From IMG/VR virus record IMGVR_UViG_2531839532_000006: a DNA stretch of 13,767 nucleotides. The stretch is one strand, 5' to 3'. Shown here piece after piece: positions 2,868 through 12,932 of this stretch (the stretch's first letter is position 1; each line of letters begins with the position of its first letter). The notes beneath the pieces are model-generated. The model was not told where the DNA came from. It was given only the letters and a program-made list of their open reading frames with translations, and ran no database searches. The DNA comes from a virus (taxonomy: Duplodnaviria; Heunggongvirae; Uroviricota; Caudoviricetes). The position numbers were made by a program, and so were the translations under genes.

Positions 2868-3107
2868 ATGGGTAGCATTAACCTGCGTATTGACGATGAA
2901 CTTAAAGCGCGTTCTTACGCCGCGCTTGAAAAAATGGGTGTAACTCCTTCTGAAGCGCTTCGTCTCATGCTCGAGTATATCGCTGACAATGAACGCTTGC
3001 CGTTCAAACAGACACTCCTGAGTGATGAAGATGCTGAACTTGTGGAGATAGTGAAAGAACGGCTTCGTAATCCTAAGCCAGTACGTGTGACGCTGGATGA
3101 ACTCTGA
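2868..3107 (+). CDS. relB: RelB antitoxin (ribbon-helix-helix)
   Basis: 79-aa ORF MGSINLRIDDELKARSYAALEKMGVTPSEALRLMLEYIADNERLPF... recognised as E. coli RelB. Its stop overlaps the relE start (ATGA at 3104-3110). Confidence 0.9.
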   Translation: MGSINLRIDDELKARSYAALEKMGVTPSEALRLMLEYIADNERLPFKQTLLSDEDAELVEIVKERLRNPKPVRVTLDEL

Positions 3108-3394
3108 TGGCGTATTTTCTGGATTTTGACGAGCGGGCACTAAAGGAATGGCGAAAGCTGGGCTCGACGGTACGTGAACAGTTGAAAAAGAAGCTGGTTG
3201 AAGTACTTGAGTCACCCCGGATTGAAGCAAACAAGCTCCGTGGTATGCCTGATTGTTACAAGATTAAGCTCCGGTCTTCAGGCTATCGCCTTGTATACCA
3301 GGTTATAGACGAGAAAGTTGTCGTTTTCGTGATTTCTGTTGGGAAAAGAGAACGCTCGGAAGTATATAGCGAGGCGGTCAAACGCATTCTCTGA
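3107..3394 (+). CDS. relE: RelE mRNA-interferase toxin
   Basis: 95-aa ORF MAYFLDFDERALKEWRKLGSTVREQLKKKLVEVLESPRIEANKLRGMPDCYKIKLRSSGYRLVYQVIDEKVVVFVISVGKRERSEVYSEAVKRIL recognised as E. coli RelE, translationally coupled to relB. Confidence 0.9.
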   Translation: MAYFLDFDERALKEWRKLGSTVREQLKKKLVEVLESPRIEANKLRGMPDCYKIKLRSSGYRLVYQVIDEKVVVFVISVGKRERSEVYSEAVKRIL

Positions 3395-4062: not shown

Positions 4063-5109
4063 GTGCGGGTATTACTTCGACCTGTTCTGGTACCGGAACT
4101 CGGGCTGGTGATCGTTAAGCCGGGCCGTGAATCCATGCCGGTATTCCACAATACCCGGGTACTGGTGGAGCCGGAACCGAAAAGCATGCGTAATCTGCCG
4201 TCCGGGGTCGTTCCTGCCGTTCGCCAGCCGCTGGTGGAAGACAAAACATTGCTGCCGTTTTTCAGTAACGCACGGGTAATTCGTGCTGCTGGTGGTGCTG
4301 GTGCATTGTCTGACTGGCTGTTGCGCAATATTAAATCCTGCCAGTGGCCACACGGCGATTATCATCACAGCGAAACCGTTATTCACCGTTATGGTACCGG
4401 CGCAATGGTGTTGTGCTGGCACTGCGACAACCAGCTGCGTGACCAGACATCCGAATCACTCGAGCAACTTGCTCATCAAAACCTGTCAGCATGGATGATT
4501 GACGTCATCGGTCACGCAATAAGCGGTACGCAGGAGCGTGAATTATCTCTGGCTGAATTATCCTGGTGGGCGGTCCGCAATCAGGTGGCGGACGCGCTAC
4601 CGGAAGCGGTATTACGTCGTTCGCTGGGGTTGCGTGCGGAAAAAATCCGCTCAATGTACCGTGAAAGCGACATCGTACCGGGAGAGCAGACCGCCACCAG
4701 CATACTGAAGCAGCGCACAAAAAATCTTGCGCCGCTGCCTCACGCCCACCAGCAAAACCCGCCACAGGAAGAGACGGTGGTCAGCATTGCCGTTGATCCT
4801 GAGTCTCCGGAATCTTTCATGAAACGACCTAAACGTCGCCGCTGGGTTAACGAGAAATACACACGCTGGGTGAAGACACAGCCGTGTGCGTGTTGTGGTA
4901 AGCCAGCCGACGATCCCCATCACCTGATTGGTCATGGTCAGGGCGGAATGGGGACAAAATCTCACGATATTTTCACGCTACCGCTGTGTCGGGAGCATCA
5001 CAACGAGCTTCATGCGGATCCTCTGGCGTTCGAAGAAAAGCATGGTTCTCAGGTTGATTTAATTTTTCGTTTTCTTGATCACGCCTTTGCAACTGGCGTG
5101 CTTGGGTAA
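4063..5109 (+). CDS. ydfU: DUF968-type prophage protein (YdfU-like) with a C-terminal Cys/His HNH-like motif
   Basis: 348-aa ORF with GTG start, SD GGAGG 4 nt upstream. C-terminus CACCGKPADDPHHLIGHGQGGMGTKSHDIFTLPLCREHHNELH looks like a zinc-binding HNH-type fold. Position upstream of rusA and Q matches Qin ydfU (349 aa) as I recall it. Confidence 0.55.
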   Translation: MRVLLRPVLVPELGLVIVKPGRESMPVFHNTRVLVEPEPKSMRNLPSGVVPAVRQPLVEDKTLLPFFSNARVIRAAGGAGALSDWLLRNIKSCQWPHGDYHHSETVIHRYGTGAMVLCWHCDNQLRDQTSESLEQLAHQNLSAWMIDVIGHAISGTQERELSLAELSWWAVRNQVADALPEAVLRRSLGLRAEKIRSMYRESDIVPGEQTATSILKQRTKNLAPLPHAHQQNPPQEETVVSIAVDPESPESFMKRPKRRRWVNEKYTRWVKTQPCACCGKPADDPHHLIGHGQGGMGTKSHDIFTLPLCREHHNELHADPLAFEEKHGSQVDLIFRFLDHAFATGVLG

Positions 5110-5121
5110 AAGAGGTGACTG

Positions 5122-5496
5122 ATGCTCATAGATTTGGTTTTACCTTACCCGCCGACGGTGAACACTTACTGGCGACGCCGTGGCAGCACATATTTTGTAT
5201 CAAAAGCCGGGGAGCGTTATCGCCGGGCAGTGGCGCTTATTGTTCGCCAGCAGCGGCTGAAATTAAGCCTGTCCGGAAGGCTGGCGATAAAGGTGATTGC
5301 AGAGCCACCGGATAAGCGTCGTCGCGACCTGGACAATATCCTGAAAGCACCGCTGGATGCGCTGACGCATGCGGGAGTGTTAATGGACGATGAGCAGTTT
5401 GATGAAATCAATATCGTTCGTGGTCAGCCAGTATCTGGAGGACCTCTGGGGGTGAAGATTTACCCCATAATGCATGAAGAGCAGGTCAAAAAATGA
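5122..5496 (+). CDS. rusA: RusA-family Holliday-junction resolvase
   Basis: 124-aa ORF with LPYPPTVNTYWRRRG and RRRDLDNILKAPLDALTHAGVLMDDEQ motifs typical of RusA. SD AGAGGTG upstream; nin-region position immediately before Q. Confidence 0.85.
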   Translation: MLIDLVLPYPPTVNTYWRRRGSTYFVSKAGERYRRAVALIVRQQRLKLSLSGRLAIKVIAEPPDKRRRDLDNILKAPLDALTHAGVLMDDEQFDEINIVRGQPVSGGPLGVKIYPIMHEEQVKK

Positions 5497-6314
5497 AACT
5501 GGAAGATTTACCGAAATACTACTCCCCAAAATCCCCTTGCCTGACCGATGCATCGGCCTCAACGTCAAAAGATGCGCTGAGTATCACTGATGTGATGGCC
5601 GCGCAGGGCATGACACAGAATCGGGCTGAGATGGGGTTTTCTGCGTTCCTGGGGAAAATGGGCATCAGTATGAATGACAGGGCGCGGGCAACAGAATTAC
5701 TGGCAGATTATGCACTCAGTCGGTGCGATCGTGTGGCGGCGTTGAGAAAACTTCCGGCAGAAATAAAACCGGTAGTGATGCGCATTATGGCTACGTATGC
5801 GTTTGAAGATTATGCCCGCAGTGCAGCGAGTAAAAAGCAGTGTCCTTGTTGCCGTGGGGAAAAATTTATTGAAAGCATAGTTTTTACAAACAAGGTCCAG
5901 TATCCGGATGGTAAGCCGCCGGTATGGGCAAAGTGTACGAAAGGTGTGTATCCGTCTTACTGGGAAGAATGGAAAAAAGTCAGGGAGGTGGTAAAAGTTG
6001 CCTGTCCGGAGTGTGGCGGAAAGGGTGAGGTTTCCACCGCCTGTAAGGATTGCCGTGGGCGTGGTGTCGCCATTCATCGTGAAGAGTCGGTAAAACGTGG
6101 TATGCCTGTTATCAGAGACTGCCAGCGTTGTGATGGTCGTGGCTGTGAAAGACTACCATCAACGGAGGCATTTAATGCCATACGCAAAGTGACGAGTGCT
6201 ATCACGCTTGATACGTGGAAAAAATCAGTGAAACGCTTTTACGATACGTTGGTGGTTCGGTTTGACATTGAAGAGGCATGGGCGGAGCGGCAGTTAAAGA
6301 GGGTAACGCGATAG
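5493..6314 (+). CDS. Q: Late-gene antiterminator Q (zinc-ribbon-rich; Q82 / QuuQ-like)
   Basis: 273-aa ORF whose start overlaps the rusA stop (ATGA). Contains CPCCRG, CPECGGKG, CKDCRGRG and CQRCDGRG repeats. A promoter plus intrinsic terminator follow immediately downstream, as expected for Q. Confidence 0.7.
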   Translation: MKLEDLPKYYSPKSPCLTDASASTSKDALSITDVMAAQGMTQNRAEMGFSAFLGKMGISMNDRARATELLADYALSRCDRVAALRKLPAEIKPVVMRIMATYAFEDYARSAASKKQCPCCRGEKFIESIVFTNKVQYPDGKPPVWAKCTKGVYPSYWEEWKKVREVVKVACPECGGKGEVSTACKDCRGRGVAIHREESVKRGMPVIRDCQRCDGRGCERLPSTEAFNAIRKVTSAITLDTWKKSVKRFYDTLVVRFDIEEAWAERQLKRVTR

Positions 6315-6347: not shown

Positions 6348-6395
6348 TGCTCTAACGATGGGCGTTTTATGCCTGACGTTAGAAGATTTTTTACA

Positions 6396-6418
6396 CCCCG
6401 CCGCCTGGCGGGTTTTTT
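6396..6418 (+). terminator. tR'-like intrinsic terminator downstream of PR'
   Basis: CCCGCC-GCCT-GGCGGG hairpin followed by TTTTTT. Confidence 0.65.
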
Positions 6419-6538
6419 ATGACTGAAATCGCGTCAGTACAGTAAACGCGCTGGTGGCGGTGAATACCTGTCTTTCAGCTTGCTGGCTTTTTCGACAAGA
6501 GTTATTGGTGTGTCACGTTAACCGGAAAAGGAAAAGAC

Positions 6539-6736
6539 ATGCTAAAACAGCAGGATATGACAGAAACCGCCAGAGTGGTGTTTAATGAATTAAGCGTTAC
6601 CGACCCGGCGACAGTCGGGGAGATAGCGCAGAATACTTACCTTTCACGCGAACGCTGCCAGTTAATACTGACTCAGCTGGTTATGGCGGGTCTGGCAGAC
6701 TATCAGTTCGGTTGTTACAGACGCCTTCCGCAGTGA
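6539..6736 (+). CDS. Small hypothetical protein, possibly a winged-helix DNA-binding protein
   Basis: 65-aa ORF with a good RBS (AAAGGAAAAG, about 5 nt spacing). Its stop codon lies within an intrinsic terminator hairpin. Confidence 0.45.
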   Translation: MLKQQDMTETARVVFNELSVTDPATVGEIAQNTYLSRERCQLILTQLVMAGLADYQFGCYRRLPQ

Positions 6737-6747
6737 AGGCTTTTTTA
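6723..6747 (+). terminator. Intrinsic terminator overlapping the stop codon of the 65-aa ORF
   Basis: GCCTTC-CGCAGT-GAAGGC hairpin followed by TTTTTTATTT. Confidence 0.5.
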
Positions 6748-6763: not shown

Positions 6764-6794
6764 GGCTGGTGGGTGTTAGGGGCACCCACCAGCC
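6764..6794. repeat. Perfect 12-bp inverted repeat (GGCTGGTGGGTG / CACCCACCAGCC, 7-nt loop) with no U-tract
   Basis: Seen directly in the leader of the methyltransferase gene. A second copy of the PR' core TGTGGTAAAT sits just upstream at 6752-6761. Confidence 0.6.
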
Positions 6795-6886: not shown

Positions 6887-7936
6887 ATGCTTAATACTGT
6901 AAAAATATCCAGTTGTGAGTTAATCAACGCCGACTGCCTGGAATTTATCCGGTCGTTACCCGAAAATTCTGTTGACCTGATAGTCACGGACCCGCCGTAC
7001 TTTAAAGTGAAGCCTGAGGGCTGGGATAACCAGTGGAAGGGCGACGATGATTACCTGAAGTGGCTGGACCAGTGTCTGGCGCAGTTCTGGCGGGTGCTGA
7101 AACCTGCCGGAAGTCTTTACCTGTTCTGTGGTCATCGCCTGGCATCTGATATCGAAATCATGATGCGTGAACGCTTCAGTGTGCTGAACCATATTATCTG
7201 GGCGAAGCCGTCCGGACGCTGGAACGGATGCAACAAGGAAAGCCTGCGGGCGTATTTCCCCGCCACAGAGCGCATTCTGTTCGCGGAACATTATCAGGGG
7301 CCGTATCGTCCGAAAGATGCCGGGTATGCGGCGAAGGGCAGTGCACTGAAACAGCATGTGATGGCCCCGCTGATTTCTTACTTTCGTGATGCGCGCGCGG
7401 CCCTGGGGATAACGGCAAAACAGATTGCAGATGCCACAGGAAAGAAAAACATGGTGTCGCACTGGTTCAGTGCCAGTCAGTGGCAGCTACCGAATGAAAG
7501 CGATTATCTGAAATTACAGGCGCTGTTTGCCCGGGTGGCAGAAGAGAAGCATCGGCGTGGTGAACTGGAAAAGCTCCACCACCAGCTGGTGGATACGTAT
7601 ACCTCACTGAACCGGCAGTATGCGGAGCTGCTGAGTGAATATAAACATCTGCGGCGGTATTTTGGCGTGACGGTGCAGGTGCCGTATACCGATGTGTGGA
7701 CGCATAAACCGGTGCAGTTCTATCCCGGGAAACATCCGTGCGAAAAACCGGCAGAAATGCTGCAGCAGATAATCAGCGCAAGCAGTCGTCCGGGTGACCT
7801 GGTTGCAGATTTTTTTATGGGCTCAGGTTCAACGGTAAAAGCTGCACTGGCGCTCGGGCGTCGTGCGATTGGCGTTGAACTGGAGACCGGACGTTTTGAG
7901 CAGACAGTCAGGGAAGTTCAGGATTTAATCGTTTGA
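6887..7936 (+). CDS. Orphan DNA methyltransferase, beta-class (DPPY motif; most likely N6-adenine)
   Basis: 349-aa ORF with motif IV DLIVTDPPYF near the N-terminus and an FxGxG-type AdoMet motif DFFMGSGST near the C-terminus. No adjacent restriction endonuclease candidate. Confidence 0.85.
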   Translation: MLNTVKISSCELINADCLEFIRSLPENSVDLIVTDPPYFKVKPEGWDNQWKGDDDYLKWLDQCLAQFWRVLKPAGSLYLFCGHRLASDIEIMMRERFSVLNHIIWAKPSGRWNGCNKESLRAYFPATERILFAEHYQGPYRPKDAGYAAKGSALKQHVMAPLISYFRDARAALGITAKQIADATGKKNMVSHWFSASQWQLPNESDYLKLQALFARVAEEKHRRGELEKLHHQLVDTYTSLNRQYAELLSEYKHLRRYFGVTVQVPYTDVWTHKPVQFYPGKHPCEKPAEMLQQIISASSRPGDLVADFFMGSGSTVKAALALGRRAIGVELETGRFEQTVREVQDLIV

Positions 7937-7985: not shown

Positions 7986-8061
7986 GGCCCTTTAGCTCAG
8001 TGGTGAGAGCGAGCGACTCATAATCGCCAGGTCGCTGGTTCAAATCCAGCAAGGGCCACCA
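7986..8061 (+). tRNA. ileZ: tRNA with CAU anticodon, ileZ-like (tRNA-Ile2 after lysidine modification, or tRNA-Met)
   Basis: Hand-folded cloverleaf: acceptor GGCCCTT / AAGGGCC, D-arm GCTC...GAGC, anticodon loop CTCATAA, T-arm GCTGG-TTCAAAT-CCAGC, encoded CCA. One A-C mismatch at the top of the anticodon stem. Confidence 0.8.
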
Positions 8062-8161
8062 TCACAAACCGCCATTAGCTTATCAGGAAGAGCAGACGAC
8101 ACGATAACAGGGTTGTTGGTGCGGGGGCGGGTCCCCGATGGCGGTCCATTATCGGTATTCA

Positions 8162-8235
8162 GCGTTGTTAGCTCAGCCGGACAGAGCAATTGCCTTCTAA
8201 GCAATCGGTCACTGGTTCGAATCCAGTACAGCGCG
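8162..8235 (+). tRNA. tRNA-Arg (anticodon UCU), argO-like; 3' CCA not encoded
   Basis: Hand-folded cloverleaf: acceptor GCGTTGT / ACAGCGC (one G-U pair), D-arm GCTC...GAGC, anticodon stem ATTGC / GCAAT with loop CTTCTAA, T-arm ACTGG-TTCGAAT-CCAGT. Discriminator G is followed by CTA. Confidence 0.8.
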
Positions 8236-8375
8236 CTATATTCATTCTTCCAGATTCCTTCCGGCAGAGCCTTATACTGAAATATACCTGGCTCAGGATA
8301 TTGTTGAAAATATTTTATGTTTGTCAAAAATAAAAGTTCTGTTAAGTATTGATTGAGTGTTTGTTATACGGTCTA

Positions 8376-8702: not shown

Positions 8703-9093
8703 ATACATATCTGGATTATCACTTGTTACGGTAAAAAGTGATTGCTTACTGTTTTTGTGAGTGGCATTGCAGCAGCCGGATAATGTCAGTGCTGGCTGAC
8801 GGTGTGCTGGTGGCGGGTGTGGTGGTTGTTGCTTTCCCGTTGCTGAAAAAGAAAACGCCAGACTGTTAGCCGGGTATCAGTTAGCGGGAGAAATTTTTAA
8901 ATACTTCACAATTCAGGCGGTTGACTGTTGTCTGGTTTGCGGGGAGTTTGTTAAAAGAAACTGGCATGGTGAATCCCCCTGTGCGGAGGGGCAATCAGCG
9001 AGTAGGTATATGGGATAATCGCGGATTCAGGTGCTGGTACTGAATTCACCGGGAGGCACCCGGCACCATGCAATGGCACATAGCGCCACTCTC

Positions 9094-9120
9094 CAGCCCC
9101 TCTCCGGAGGGGCTGTTTAT
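9094..9120 (+). terminator. Intrinsic terminator inside the cargo island
   Basis: CAGCCCCTC-TCCG-GAGGGGCTG hairpin followed by TTTATATTGATTTT. Confidence 0.5.
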
Positions 9121-9146
9121 ATTGATTTTGTCAGATGTGAGTAAAC

Positions 9147-9180
9147 TCCTTATGGACTTTGTTGTTTTAGTCCATAAGGA
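9147..9180 (-). terminator. Perfect 12-bp stem-loop overlapping the 3' end of the minus-strand ORF (possible terminator)
   Basis: TCCTTATGGACT-(10-nt loop)-AGTCCATAAGGA. On the minus strand it is followed by GTTTACTC, only moderately U-rich. It encodes the last residues (PYGLKQQSP) of ORF 9150..9485. Confidence 0.4.
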
Positions 9181-9485
9181 CATATTTGCAGAGTGCAACG
9201 GTTATTAAAGCATTCATTCAATACGTTATCTGTATTTGTAGGACATTCCTGGCTGTTTTTGATTAAATTCCAGAATGTTTTATTGAATGGTACTACGTTG
9301 TAAATGGTTACAGGTAGCACTTTGTTATTGAGCATGATACCTGTGTGAGTCAGTGTAAATATACTTTCAGGAGGTAAGAAAGCATCCGATTGATACCAGA
9401 TTATTAATTTTATTTTACTCCATATGACTGAAAAAGATATTCCGCATGATGGCTGGATAACTGTATCAATCACAATCCACTTCAT
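9150..9485 (-). CDS. Hypothetical protein in AT-rich cargo DNA, antisense to the late operon
   Basis: 111-aa ORF with a plausible RBS AAGGAAG about 5 nt before the ATG on the minus strand, and a possible -10 TATACT upstream. No signal peptide recognised; several Cys near the C-terminus. Confidence 0.4.
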
Positions 9486-9745
9486 TTAGCTTCCTTGTTT
9501 ATGCCTTGCTGGTGATGTTCTGAAAAGTATAAATGATATTTTTGAATATAAACCATAGAGCAGAATTATTTTTCTGATGTTGTTTATTGTTTATTTAAAT
9601 GCAGGGTGGTTTATATCTCGTCTTGTAGTTTATCCATGCATATCTGCTTGATGATCAGGTTTCTATTTAAGGTATGGTTTTGTGTTTTTTCTGTGTTACA
9701 TGTCTGGTATTTTAAAGAATTATTTTTCAGATGGTGGAAAGAACC

Positions 9746-9934
9746 ATGGCATTTAAACACTATGATGTTGTCAGGGCGGCGCCGCCGTCAGATCTTGCGG
9801 AAAAGCTGACACATAAACTGAAAGAGGGCTGGCAGCCGTTTGGTAGTCCGGTGGCCATAACCCCTTATACCCTGATGCAGGCGATTGCAGCAGAAGGTGA
9901 TGTGGTGGTCAGTGGTGCAACTGAGCCCGAGTGA
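9746..9934 (+). CDS. Small hypothetical protein (62 aa), possibly a DUF1737-type small prophage protein
   Basis: MAFKHYDVVRAAPPSDLAEKLTHKLKEGWQPFGSPVAITPYTLMQAIAAEGDVVVSGATEPE with RBS-like GGTGGAAAGAA upstream. The ORF track starts it at 9731. The family assignment is a weak recollection only. Confidence 0.45.
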   Translation: MAFKHYDVVRAAPPSDLAEKLTHKLKEGWQPFGSPVAITPYTLMQAIAAEGDVVVSGATEPE

Positions 9935-10089: not shown

Positions 10090-10177
10090 TAAAAAGTGAG
10101 CCAGTCAAATGGAAGGTATCGTTAAACTCACCGGTAGTGTCAGTGGGTCGTCTGAGATGCCTGCATGAGTTATCAGA

Positions 10178-10207
10178 GCCATCAGTACTTAACTGGTGGC
10201 TTTTTTT
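10178..10207 (+). terminator. Strong intrinsic terminator immediately upstream of the holin gene
   Basis: GCCATCAGT-ACTTA-ACTGGTGGC hairpin (one G-U pair) followed by TTTTTTT. Confidence 0.6.
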
Positions 10208-10242
10208 ATTGTTGTCAGCTTCCGGATAACGGGAGACGGGGT

Positions 10243-10458
10243 ATGTACCAGATGGAAAAAATCACAACAGGTGTGTCATACACCACGTCAGCGGTGGGAA
10301 CGGGCTACTGGTTCCTGCAGTTGCTGGACAGGGTTTCCCCGTCTCAGTGGGCGGCAATAGGCGTGCTGGGGAGTCTGCTGTTTGGGCTGCTGACATATCT
10401 GACTAACCTGTATTTCAAAATCAGAGAGGACCGTCGTAAGGCGGCACGGGGAGAGTAA
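10243..10458 (+). CDS. S: Class II holin, phage-21 S21-type pinholin, with dual-start motif (Met1 / Met4)
   Basis: 71 aa [79 protein letters not shown] sits 7 nt upstream. The longer ORF-track version from 10165 is an unsupported N-terminal extension. Confidence 0.85.
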
Positions 10459-10462
10459 TTCA

Positions 10463-10777
10463 ATGACTCAAAACTATGAACTGATTGTGAAAGGGATCCG
10501 CAATTTTGAGAATAAAGTTACGGTAACTTTAGCGTTACGGGACAAAAAACGCTTTGACGGTGAAATTTTTGACCTGGACATCTCGCTGGACCGTGTTGAA
10601 GGTGCCGCGCTGGAGTTTTATGAGGCAGCAGCCAGAAGGAGCATCAGACAGGTCTTCCTGGATGTTGCTGCCGGGTTATGTGAAGGGGACGAGCTGTTGC
10701 CAGAAACGCGCCCCTGTTCAGAGGCGCGGTATACCATAAAAATTAACAGTTCTGATAACTCGATTACGGGTTGTTAG
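10463..10777 (+). CDS. ydfR: YdfR-like hypothetical protein between holin and endolysin
   Basis: 104-aa ORF starting 5 nt after the holin stop. Position and length match ydfR of the Qin lysis cassette as I recall it. Confidence 0.5.
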   Translation: MTQNYELIVKGIRNFENKVTVTLALRDKKRFDGEIFDLDISLDRVEGAALEFYEAAARRSIRQVFLDVAAGLCEGDELLPETRPCSEARYTIKINSSDNSITGC

Positions 10778-10832
10778 CTTTTTGCAGTTGGCTTTCCAGT
10801 ATCTTTCATTGGTAGCATCCTGATAAATATCC

Positions 10833-11366
10833 ATGAGCGCAAAAATCAAATACGGCCTGTCAGCTGCTGTTCTGGCGCTGATTGCTGCAGGCGCGTCTGC
10901 TCCTCAGATACTTGACCAGTTTCTGGACGAAAAAGAGGGTAACCACACAACGGCATACCGCGATGGTTCCGGCAACTGGACCATCTGTCGGGGGGCCACG
11001 ATGGTGGATGGAAAACCCGTTTTTCCCGGTATGAAACTGTCGAAGGAAAAATGCGACCAGGTCAACGCCATTGAGCGTGATAAGGCGCTGGCATGGGTGG
11101 AGAAAAACATCAAAGTGCCATTGAGCGAACCCCAGAAAGCGGGGATCGCGTCATTCTGTCCGTACAACATTGGTCCCGGTAAGTGTTTCCCGTCGACGTT
11201 TTATAAACGAATTAATGCAGGTGATCACAGGGGAGCGTGTGAGGCGATTCGCTGGTGGATTAAGGACGGTGGCAGAGACTGCCGTATTCGTTCAAACAAT
11301 TGCTACGGTCAGGTATCCCGTCGTGACCAGGAGAGCGCGCTGGCGTGCTGGGGTATCGACAGATAA
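10833..11366 (+). CDS. R: SAR endolysin (T4-lysozyme-like muramidase with N-terminal signal-anchor-release domain)
   Basis: 177-aa ORF with a Gly/Ala-rich weakly hydrophobic N-terminus (YGLSAAVLALIAAGASAP) and an E-8aa-D-5aa-T catalytic spacing (DEKEGNHTTAYRDGSGNWT). Partner of the pinholin. Confidence 0.9.
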   Translation: MSAKIKYGLSAAVLALIAAGASAPQILDQFLDEKEGNHTTAYRDGSGNWTICRGATMVDGKPVFPGMKLSKEKCDQVNAIERDKALAWVEKNIKVPLSEPQKAGIASFCPYNIGPGKCFPSTFYKRINAGDHRGACEAIRWWIKDGGRDCRIRSNNCYGQVSRRDQESALACWGIDR

Positions 11367-11456
11367 GCAGAATATTTTGCTGAAAAATAAGGCATGGCCA
11401 CGCGGGCGGATAACATGAAATCCTGCGAAGTGGCGAAACGTAAGTGAATAAAAGTA

Positions 11457-11490
11457 AAAACCCCGTTTGTTGGCACCAAGCGGGGTTTTG
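11457..11490 (+). terminator. Intrinsic terminator-like hairpin between endolysin and spanin genes
   Basis: AAAACCCCG-(15-nt loop)-CGGGGTTTT followed by GTGTTT. Confidence 0.5.
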
Positions 11491-11525
11491 TGTTTCCTGA
11501 CTCCGGAAAAGTCAAAGGAGAAAGT

Positions 11526-11663
11526 GTGTTTGATTTTAGCAAACTGATTCGGGAGATTCGAGTGATGGCTGAAAAATTATCCACCTGGAAGTTCATTCTT
11601 ATCTGGCTGGTGTTTGTGATTATGGCCTCCGGTTATTTCATCGGTCAGATACGCTGGTGGTGA
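11526..11663 (+). CDS. Small single-pass membrane protein (45 aa), unannotated, translationally coupled to Rz
   Basis: Hand-translated: GTG at 11526 with RBS AAAGGAG 5 nt upstream (ATG 11565 is an alternative start). Product [45 protein letters not shown]. Stop TGA at 11661-11663 is 1 nt before the Rz ATG. Confidence 0.4.
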
Positions 11664-11664
11664 A

Positions 11665-12129
11665 ATGAACCGCGTACTGTGCGTGGTCATCATTGCCCTG
11701 CTGGTGGCCTGTGGTGCGCTTAGTCTGGGGCTGAATCATTACCGTGATAACGCCATTACCTACAAAGCCCAGCGCGACAAAAATGTCAGAGAACTGAAGC
11801 TGGCGAACGCGGCAATTACTGACATGCAGATGCGTCAGCGTGATGTTGCTGCGCTCGATGCAAAATACACGAAGGAGTTAGCTGATGCGAAAGCTGAAAA
11901 TGATGCTCTGCGTGATGATGTTGCCGCTGGTCGTCGTCGGTTGCACATCAAAGCAGTCTGTCAGTCAGTGCGTGAAGCCACCACCGCCTCCGGCGTGGAT
12001 AATGCAGCCTCCCCCCGACTGGCAGACACCGCTGAACGGGATTATTTCACCCTCAGAGCGCGACTGATAATAATGCAAAAACAACTTGAAGGGGCACAGC
12101 TATACATTCGAGAGCAATGCCTCAGATAA
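11665..12129 (+). CDS. Rz: Rz i-spanin (inner-membrane spanin subunit)
   Basis: 154-aa ORF with an N-terminal TM helix ([18 protein letters not shown]) and coiled-coil periplasmic domain. Follows the endolysin and contains an embedded +1-frame ORF. Confidence 0.85.
11885..12067 (+). CDS. Rz1: Rz1 o-spanin (outer-membrane lipoprotein) embedded in Rz in the +1 frame
   Basis: 60-aa ORF with lipobox LPLVVVGC and a proline-rich mature region ([18 protein letters not shown]), entirely inside Rz. Confidence 0.75.
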
Positions 12130-12436: not shown

Positions 12437-12715
12437 TTAGTGCGGAAATATTTGTGTAGTGTTCTGAATGTTCTCAGTAAAGAGTAATGAATTATCAAAG
12501 GTATAGTAATATCTTTTGTTTTCGTGGATATTTGTAATCCATCTGAAAACCCCTGCTGTAGCAAGATTTTTCCTGTATTCGTAAAATGATAACTCTCCTG
12601 ATTTGAATCCTTTTAAGGTGGCTTCTATAAGGCATTTATTTTTTGAAAATCTTACATTTACAACCTTACCCTGCTCTCCAATGACTAGTCTAAAAACTAG
12701 TATTAAGACTATCAC
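12437..12715 (-). CDS. Hypothetical protein in AT-rich DNA after the lysis cassette (bor-position moron)
   Basis: 92-aa ORF with a GTG start and no clear RBS. The start codon lies inside a 20-bp perfect palindrome; a stem-loop at 12400-12428 follows the stop. Confidence 0.3.
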
Positions 12716-12729
12716 TTATTTAAGTGATA
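12710..12729. promoter_or_regulatory. 20-bp perfect palindrome TATCACTTATTTAAGTGATA (operator-like)
   Basis: Seen directly. The TATCAC half-sites resemble lambda-type operator half-sites. It overlaps the start of ORF 12437..12715. Confidence 0.5.
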
Positions 12730-12932
12730 TTGGTTGTCTGGAGATTCAGGGGGCCAGTCTAATAGTAAATGTAATGTGAGACATTGTGACGTTTTAGCTC
12801 AGAATAAAACCATTGATAGTTTAAATCGTTTCGAACTTTATCAAATATTTGTTTAAAAATGACTACCTGATCCATAGATAAACCTTCCATGTGATATGAG
12901 GGGGCGTAGTCTGCACGATTATCTAAATTGCT

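Follow-up and report, generated by a model that had tools for sequence, protein, structure and literature searches.

What kind of gene is a small, AT-rich open reading frame (ORF) that is read against the late operon of a lambdoid prophage, and how is it set off from the transcription around it? The question is raised by a minus-strand ORF in a 13,767-nt stretch of viral DNA (IMG/VR record IMGVR_UViG_2531839532_000006, Caudoviricetes), which we call the window. A sequence-only reading had taken this ORF for an independently transcribed, lysogen-expressed cargo gene (moron) of the bor or lom type, with its own ribosome-binding site and -10 element, a perfect 12-bp stem-loop over its last codons, and a plus-strand terminator nearby that would insulate it. 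The comparisons presented below identify the ORF as iraL, a prophage cargo gene for an anti-adaptor of RssB; this is the best overall explanation of the locus, and we put its probability at about 95%. The identity of iraL as such is already known, as the identical protein was characterized in 2014 and the prophage context is the usual one.

The antisense gene lies in the stx slot of a lambdoid prophage

The window spans the part of a lambdoid prophage that serves late regulation and lysis. Its left part carries an ISNCY-family transposase gene (253-1566; 455 bits) between the arms of an imperfect 16-nt inverted repeat (65-80 / 1844-1859), a FlxA-like gene on the minus strand (2003-2335), and a plus-strand toxin-antitoxin pair of the RelB/DinJ and RelE/StbE families (2868-3107 and 3107-3394, respectively). 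Both the FlxA-like gene and the pair lie upstream of a plus-strand block coding for DUF968 (4063-5109), RusA (5122-5496), and a Q-type antiterminator (5493-6314), which is followed on the same strand by a DNA methyltransferase gene (6887-7936) placed between the Q-like gene and the tRNAs, two tRNA genes (anticodon CAT and tRNA-Arg(TCT); 7986-8236), and a DUF3927 gene (8738-8869). Beyond the antisense gene come, again on the plus strand, DUF1737 (9731-9934) and the lysis cassette with a class II holin, DUF1327/YdfR, lysozyme, and Rz (10165-12129); Rz is followed by remnants of DUF1398 and DUF3950 genes. The late-operon setting seen from the sequence is thus borne out, with the Q-like antiterminator, tRNAs, holin, lysozyme, and Rz all on the plus strand, and the antisense gene sits between the antiterminator/tRNA region and the lysis cassette, which is the slot of stx in Shiga-toxin phages.

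The same order, namely DUF968, RusA, antiterminator, tRNAs, DUF3927, iraL on the minus strand, DUF1737, holin, YdfR, lysozyme, and Rz, is found in uropathogenic E. coli CFT073, where iraL occupies the same slot of a lambdoid prophage at the potB site, with the same neighbors, the same -10 element, and an mRNA 5' end agreeing at 30 of 32 positions. The window is nevertheless a different mosaic: its alignment to the CFT073 locus is broken into blocks of 80-99% identity, it contains the DNA methyltransferase, the ISNCY element, and the RelBE pair as extra components, and it has two tRNA genes against three in CFT073. None of the complete E. coli genomes contains as much as 80% of the 13.8 kb uninterrupted; the highest coverage is 72%, at 99.7% identity. 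The closest complete genome matches from position 103 onward, in three pieces with 72% coverage, and has no annotated transposase there, so the window is either mosaic or carries an IS insertion.

Identification of the gene as iraL

The coding sequence occupies 9150..9485 on the minus strand, with an ATG start and a TAA stop (9150-9152), and specifies a protein of 111 aa, as the initial reading had it. Its AT-rich composition is likewise evident, GC being 0.31-0.33 across 9151-9750 versus ~0.5 in the flanks. The Shine-Dalgarno sequence AAGGAAG, read from the sequence as the reverse complement of 9490..9496 (minus strand), places its AGGA core 6 nt before the ATG; it falls within the 5' UTR set by 5' RACE in CFT073, which has AAGGAAA at the same place.

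A homology search with the 111-aa product, proposed earlier as a check, places it in the IraM/IraL/RssC family of RssB anti-adaptors. The product matches the NCBIfam model NF007393 ('anti-adapter protein IraM') with 162 bits against a cutoff of 121, over residues 1-110 of 111, and the IraM structure PDB 8twd with E = 9e-32 over residues 1-78. The Pfam scan of the product returned no family, the family being modeled in NCBIfam and absent from Pfam. The closest characterized relative is IraL of CFT073 (WP_000871291.1; C_RS06710, NC_004431.1), to which the product is identical at 111 of 111 residues; the genes agree at 334 of 336 nucleotides, and since both differences are synonymous, the coding sequence, which is intact, appears to be under constraint. 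The CFT073 gene is c1429, formerly ycgW (Hryckowian et al., 2014, mBio 5:e01043-14, PMC4045071; locus tag from PMC12890032), and the published criterion for the IraL subtype, at least 95% identity to CFT073 iraL (PMC4045071), includes the window gene. In E. coli genomes matching positions 8900-9800 at up to 100%, the same 336-nt gene is annotated in RefSeq as 'anti-adapter protein IraM', and the strains with a 100% match over this segment have the protein accession WP_000871291.1.

Among the paralogs, IraM of K-12 (b1160, beside icd/e14; PDB 8TWD) belongs to the same family, shares with IraL the target RssB and the stabilization of RpoS, and is 59.5% identical to the window product in amino acid sequence (58.9% for IraL versus IraM in PMC4045071). 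Both proteins keep the four cysteines and the CPYG motif of the C-terminal part. IraL differs in a 4-aa C-terminal extension, QQSP, which arises from a CAA codon where iraM and a variant from O157:H7 have the TAA stop; distant homologs also run 4 aa past a CPYG(I)R motif. The two genes further differ in their upstream regions, which are unrelated, in the hairpin at the 3' end, which is degenerate in K-12 iraM, and in their expression: IraM is induced by Mg2+ starvation (PMC10844676; for the link to PhoP/PhoQ, PMC10948607), whereas IraL acts in log phase.

The O157:H7 variant is an IraM-like gene on the stx2c side (WP_001303568.1) that codes for 107 aa, 72% identical to IraL and 65% to IraM. 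Like iraL, it is antisense, with the toxin/sRNA region on one side and the lysis genes on the other, and has the GC-rich hairpin and the STnc100-like flank downstream; unlike iraL, it lies downstream of stx2AB rather than DUF3927, and the 12-bp hairpin cannot form because its 3' arm is deleted. In the Stx2c prophage of strain 7.1_Anguil the variant was located at L004:4001-4324, antisense and directly downstream of the gene for the stx2c B subunit. To our knowledge, this stx2c-side gene has not been characterized experimentally.

Predicted function

RssB is the adaptor that brings sigma-S to the ClpXP protease, and its sequestration thus stabilizes sigma-S. [quoted passage not shown] As the CFT073 protein is identical, we carry over RssB binding, the effect on RpoS half-life, and log-phase expression as the probable properties of the window gene. 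With the prophage repressed, a sigma-70-type promoter belonging to iraL itself would drive its transcription leftward, opposite to the late operon; the cytoplasmic 111-aa product would bind the receiver (N-terminal) domain of RssB; RssB so held would not deliver sigma-S (RpoS) to ClpXP; and the stabilized RpoS would raise the general stress regulon during exponential growth.

The crystal structure of IraM with RssB defines three clusters of interface residues (PMC10844676). In the IraM/IraL alignment, the five cluster I residues that contact the N-terminal receiver domain of RssB (I4, I6, W22, K26, and I42) are all identical in IraL, and differences (T13S, L75I, H63N, and I64V) are found among the contacts to the C-terminal domain and linker, which make up clusters II and III. 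The retention of cluster I together with changes in the other two is consistent with IraL binding only the N-terminal domain. A PmrD-like fold of the N-terminal domain of IraL is likewise suggested by its similarity to the crystallized residues 1-78 of IraM.

Promoter and expression

The 5'-RACE end of the CFT073 iraL mRNA has been reported as ACATCACCAGCAAGGCATAAACAAGGAAACCA (PMC4045071). The minus strand of the window reads ACATCACCAGCAAGGCATAAACAAGGAAGCTA from 9518, which is identical to it at 30 of 32 positions over 9518..9487, with two mismatches. By this homology, transcription on the minus strand would start (+1) at 9518 and give a 5' UTR of 32 nt. The TATACT proposed earlier as the -10 hexamer is present at 9526..9531 (minus strand), 7 nt upstream of this +1, and does not vary among the 78 iraL promoter copies compared. 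The candidate -35 hexamer is TTTATA at 9547..9552 (minus strand), with a spacer of only 15 nt to the -10; this assignment is tentative. CFT073 and 68 of the 78 copies have TTTACA at this place; the TTTATA form is found in the other 10, namely the window and nine others that include phage vB_EcoS-640R1 and ETEC strains with a 100% match to the window. Overall, the region upstream of the gene differs from that of CFT073 at 9548 (in the likely -35), 9519 (-1), and 9490/9488 (in the 5' UTR/Shine-Dalgarno region). The C-to-T change at 9548 is possibly identical to the '-35 point mutation' described by Hryckowian et al. in iraL2 of JJ1886.

In CFT073, mid-log lysogen cells contain iraL mRNA made from the gene's own sigma-70-type promoter (PMC4045071); other reports describe a rise of iraL mRNA on a shift from 23 to 37 °C and a higher IraL level in a fur mutant. 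The identity of the protein, the common slot, and the promoter and log-phase transcription known from CFT073 together support the earlier view of a cargo gene with independent transcription in the lysogen, and we expect the window copy to be expressed despite the C-to-T change. Regulation by PhoP, as might be expected by analogy to iraM, was considered and dropped in view of the failure of the iraL and iraM upstream regions to align; inspection by eye upstream of iraL revealed isolated GGTTTA/GTTTA half-sites and no direct repeat with the 11-bp spacing of a PhoP box.

There are two ways in which the locus could be without consequence for the host. The ORF might be a chance frame in AT-rich intergenic DNA or a decayed pseudogene lacking a product, for which nothing more than its small size and atypical composition can be adduced. 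This notion is refuted, and we give it practically no chance: the match to NF007393 exceeds the curated cutoff, the product is identical to a protein with both genetic and biochemical data, and the frame is kept at 59-72% amino acid identity in paralogs with different flanks and at 31-32% (best tblastn segment) in other Enterobacteriaceae, contrary to the lack of conservation in other genomes that had been named as a refutation of the gene. The other possibility is that iraL is genuine but represented here by a poorly expressed or silent allele, as the change from TTTACA to TTTATA would weaken a -35 element whose spacer is already short at 15 nt, in which case the prophage would add little to RpoS control in this host. 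The window indeed has the minority form of the promoter, and AT-rich DNA, such as the 31-33% GC of this locus, is a typical target of silencing by H-NS. However, the intact coding sequence appears to be constrained; apart from the differences noted, conservation holds for the -10, the spacer region, and the UTR; and the occurrence of the same promoter allele in isolated phages and in many ETEC genomes at 100% identity shows that it is not a one-off lesion. We therefore regard a silent allele as rather unlikely and retain iraL as a probably expressed cargo gene, with the -35 allele as the main caveat on its function in this host.

The hairpin over the stop codon

The perfect 12-bp inverted repeat described earlier is present at the 3' end of iraL (9147..9180, minus strand; arms 9147-9158 / 9169-9180, TCCTTATGGACT / AGTCCATAAGGA, 100% complementary) and forms a stem with a 10-nt loop that covers not only the last nine codons but also the TAA stop and 3 nt of the 3' UTR. 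The 5' arm codes for part of the conserved C-terminal CPYGL motif, and the stop codon falls within the 3' arm. The structure is non-random: in 2000 shuffles of the window, perfect 12-bp repeats with loops of 3-20 nt numbered 0.016 per window on average, and only 1.25% of the shuffled sequences held any. The window itself holds two; the second, at 6764-6794 (GGCTGGTGGGTG / CACCCACCAGCC; loop of 7 nt), falls in the interval from the Q-type antiterminator gene to that of the DNA methyltransferase.

Such a hairpin invites the proposal that iraL has a terminator of its own, which would make the locus a self-contained cassette of promoter, gene, and terminator. In addition to its improbability by chance, the stem lies exactly at the 3' end of the gene, is perfect, and is stable as RNA (-17.5 kcal/mol, z = -5.7), and at one position both sides have changed relative to K-12 iraM with the pairing retained (CCT...AAGG in iraL versus CCA...ATAA in iraM, a swap of T-A to A-T), although a single change of this kind does not count as evidence. 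Against this stand several features of the hairpin and its distribution. The stem is AT-rich, with 5 of 12 pairs G-C, and is followed by GUUUACUC, with no U-tract; in agreement, the terminator scan found no terminator-like site on the minus strand downstream of the iraL stop, and a canonical intrinsic terminator was accordingly rejected. With the stop codon inside the 3' arm, a terminating ribosome would probably hold the stem open. The stem is also variable even where the protein is identical: among 80 viral contigs encoding the identical protein, it is perfect in 34, has an A-U pair turned into a G·U wobble by a GGA-to-GGG change in 37, and in nine combines GGG with a G-to-C change by which the second pair, counted from the base of the stem, becomes a C·C mismatch. 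The hairpin is not part of the minimum free energy (MFE) folds of K-12 or Shigella iraM, K-12 keeping only a degenerate remnant that is not used; its 3' arm segment is deleted in the O157 stx2c-side variant; and no comparable hairpin is seen in two homologs with 31-32% identity, one from a Pseudescherichia MAG and the other from an unclassified Enterobacteriaceae MAG. Judged by these comparisons, the hairpin is not conserved across the IraM/IraL family. With 1,340 of 1,448 genomes at 99% identity or more, the iraL 3' end is nearly clonal, and the three variable positions in the stem and loop are too few for covariation statistics. A functional terminator is hence improbable; the hairpin is most likely a lineage-specific structure of the 3' end. 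It may fold after the ribosomes leave and then shield the mRNA, or it may be an incidental small inverted duplication, and we hold each of these two readings with low confidence.

The convergent STnc100 sRNA

Facing iraL on the plus strand is an sRNA of the STnc100 family (8935..9124), which matches Rfam RF02076 over the full length of the model (1-206) with 132.4 bits (gathering threshold 47; E = 1e-30). Its 3' hairpin at 9094-9115, with nine pairs, seven of them G-C, followed by the T-run TTTATATTGA, is the plus-strand terminator noted earlier. The existence of that terminator thus stands, 31 nt from the iraL hairpin and 34 nt from the iraL stop, and the insulating role ascribed to it does not, as it belongs to the convergent STnc100 neighbor. 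This GC-rich hairpin has a T-run on the plus strand only. In the lysogen it would still block plus-strand transcripts from entering iraL. STnc100 has been described as a prophage marker related to PasD and is located ~75 nt downstream of the stx2 operon (PMC12370729 for the distance); the same element follows stx2B in Stx2 phages, and Stx phages match the 8900-9120 part of an 8900-9800 query, i.e. the sRNA and its flanks. Within the STnc100 region, at 8954-9079, RefSeq has a 126-nt pseudogene on the opposite strand, labeled 'hypothetical protein'.

The iraL hairpin and the end of STnc100 are 22 nt apart and convergent, and neither comes with a terminator working against the other strand. On this geometry alone one can conceive a coupling by read-through. 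Transcripts of iraL that pass the U-less hairpin would run antisense to STnc100, and Q-modified late transcription, which is expected to pass the STnc100 terminator, would cover all of iraL in antisense. The extent of read-through might be set by the hairpin at the stop codon, in a manner that depends on translation. The arrangement would then amount to a built-in shut-off of an RpoS-boosting cargo gene upon prophage induction, a speculative scheme that we consider quite improbable.

Distribution, moron character, and significance

Matches to iraL at 95% identity or more are found in ~1,400 of 5,426 complete E. coli genomes, and the identical protein is encoded in more than 80 viral contigs. 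The gene also occurs in the isolated phage vB_EcoS-640R1 and its relatives, and in E. albertii. Only four of 160 matching phage records contain iraL, the remaining ones matching only the neighboring sRNA segment. In the Stx2c prophages, the slot holds stx2 together with the different iraM-like variant.

Of the properties that characterize a moron, iraL shows atypical composition (GC 0.31-0.33) and presence/absence polymorphism (the four of 160 phage records). It may also have a promoter of its own that is active in the lysogen: its -10 and +1 match the 5'-RACE promoter of CFT073, and its allele differs at the likely -35. No clear terminator of its own was found, the scan giving none on the minus strand after the iraL stop and the 12-bp hairpin having no U-tract. 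The comparison to bor and lom holds for the genomic layout, that is, a small gene of atypical composition in a lambdoid late region that has its own promoter, is expressed while the prophage is repressed, and changes the phenotype of the host. It does not extend to the product: Bor is an outer-membrane lipoprotein and Lom an outer-membrane beta-barrel protein, whereas IraL, which has no relation in sequence or function to either, is a cytoplasmic regulator of proteolysis acting on RssB.

The presence of iraL marks the prophage as able to raise RpoS in growing cells, a trait that published work associates with uropathogenic E. coli and Shigella. The value of the assignment is in annotation, and it carries little weight as a discovery, as RefSeq already annotates an IraM-family anti-adaptor. 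At a more general level, the stx slot of lambdoid phages repeatedly carries a gene of the IraM/IraL type beside an sRNA of the STnc100 type.

Other features of the window

Just upstream of the perfect repeat at 6764-6794 are hairpins with T-runs that resemble terminators (~6395-6420 and 6722-6745); these may be late-promoter-proximal terminators (tR'-like). The lysozyme and Rz genes are separated by a gap of ~300 bp (11367-11664), which contains a GC-rich hairpin with a T-run (~11459-11490) and a small ORF (11490-11663); their CFT073 counterparts overlap, without the 300-bp insert. With respect to the tRNAs, of which the window has two and both CFT073 and the Stx2c phages have three, ARAGORN calls the gene at 7986-8061 tRNA-Met (CAT), and RefSeq annotates an identical gene as tRNA-Ile; it is the usual lysidine-modified, ileZ-type tRNA of Stx-like phages. 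The DUF1398 (YdfO/YcgX-like) gene after Rz (12437-12856, minus strand) is truncated and covers only positions 50-119 of the profile, with several in-frame stops upstream, a close relative being 136 aa long. In K-12, the DUF1398 gene ycgX lies ~0.7 kb upstream of iraM, and this proximity suggests that the K-12 iraM locus is the remnant of a similar prophage.
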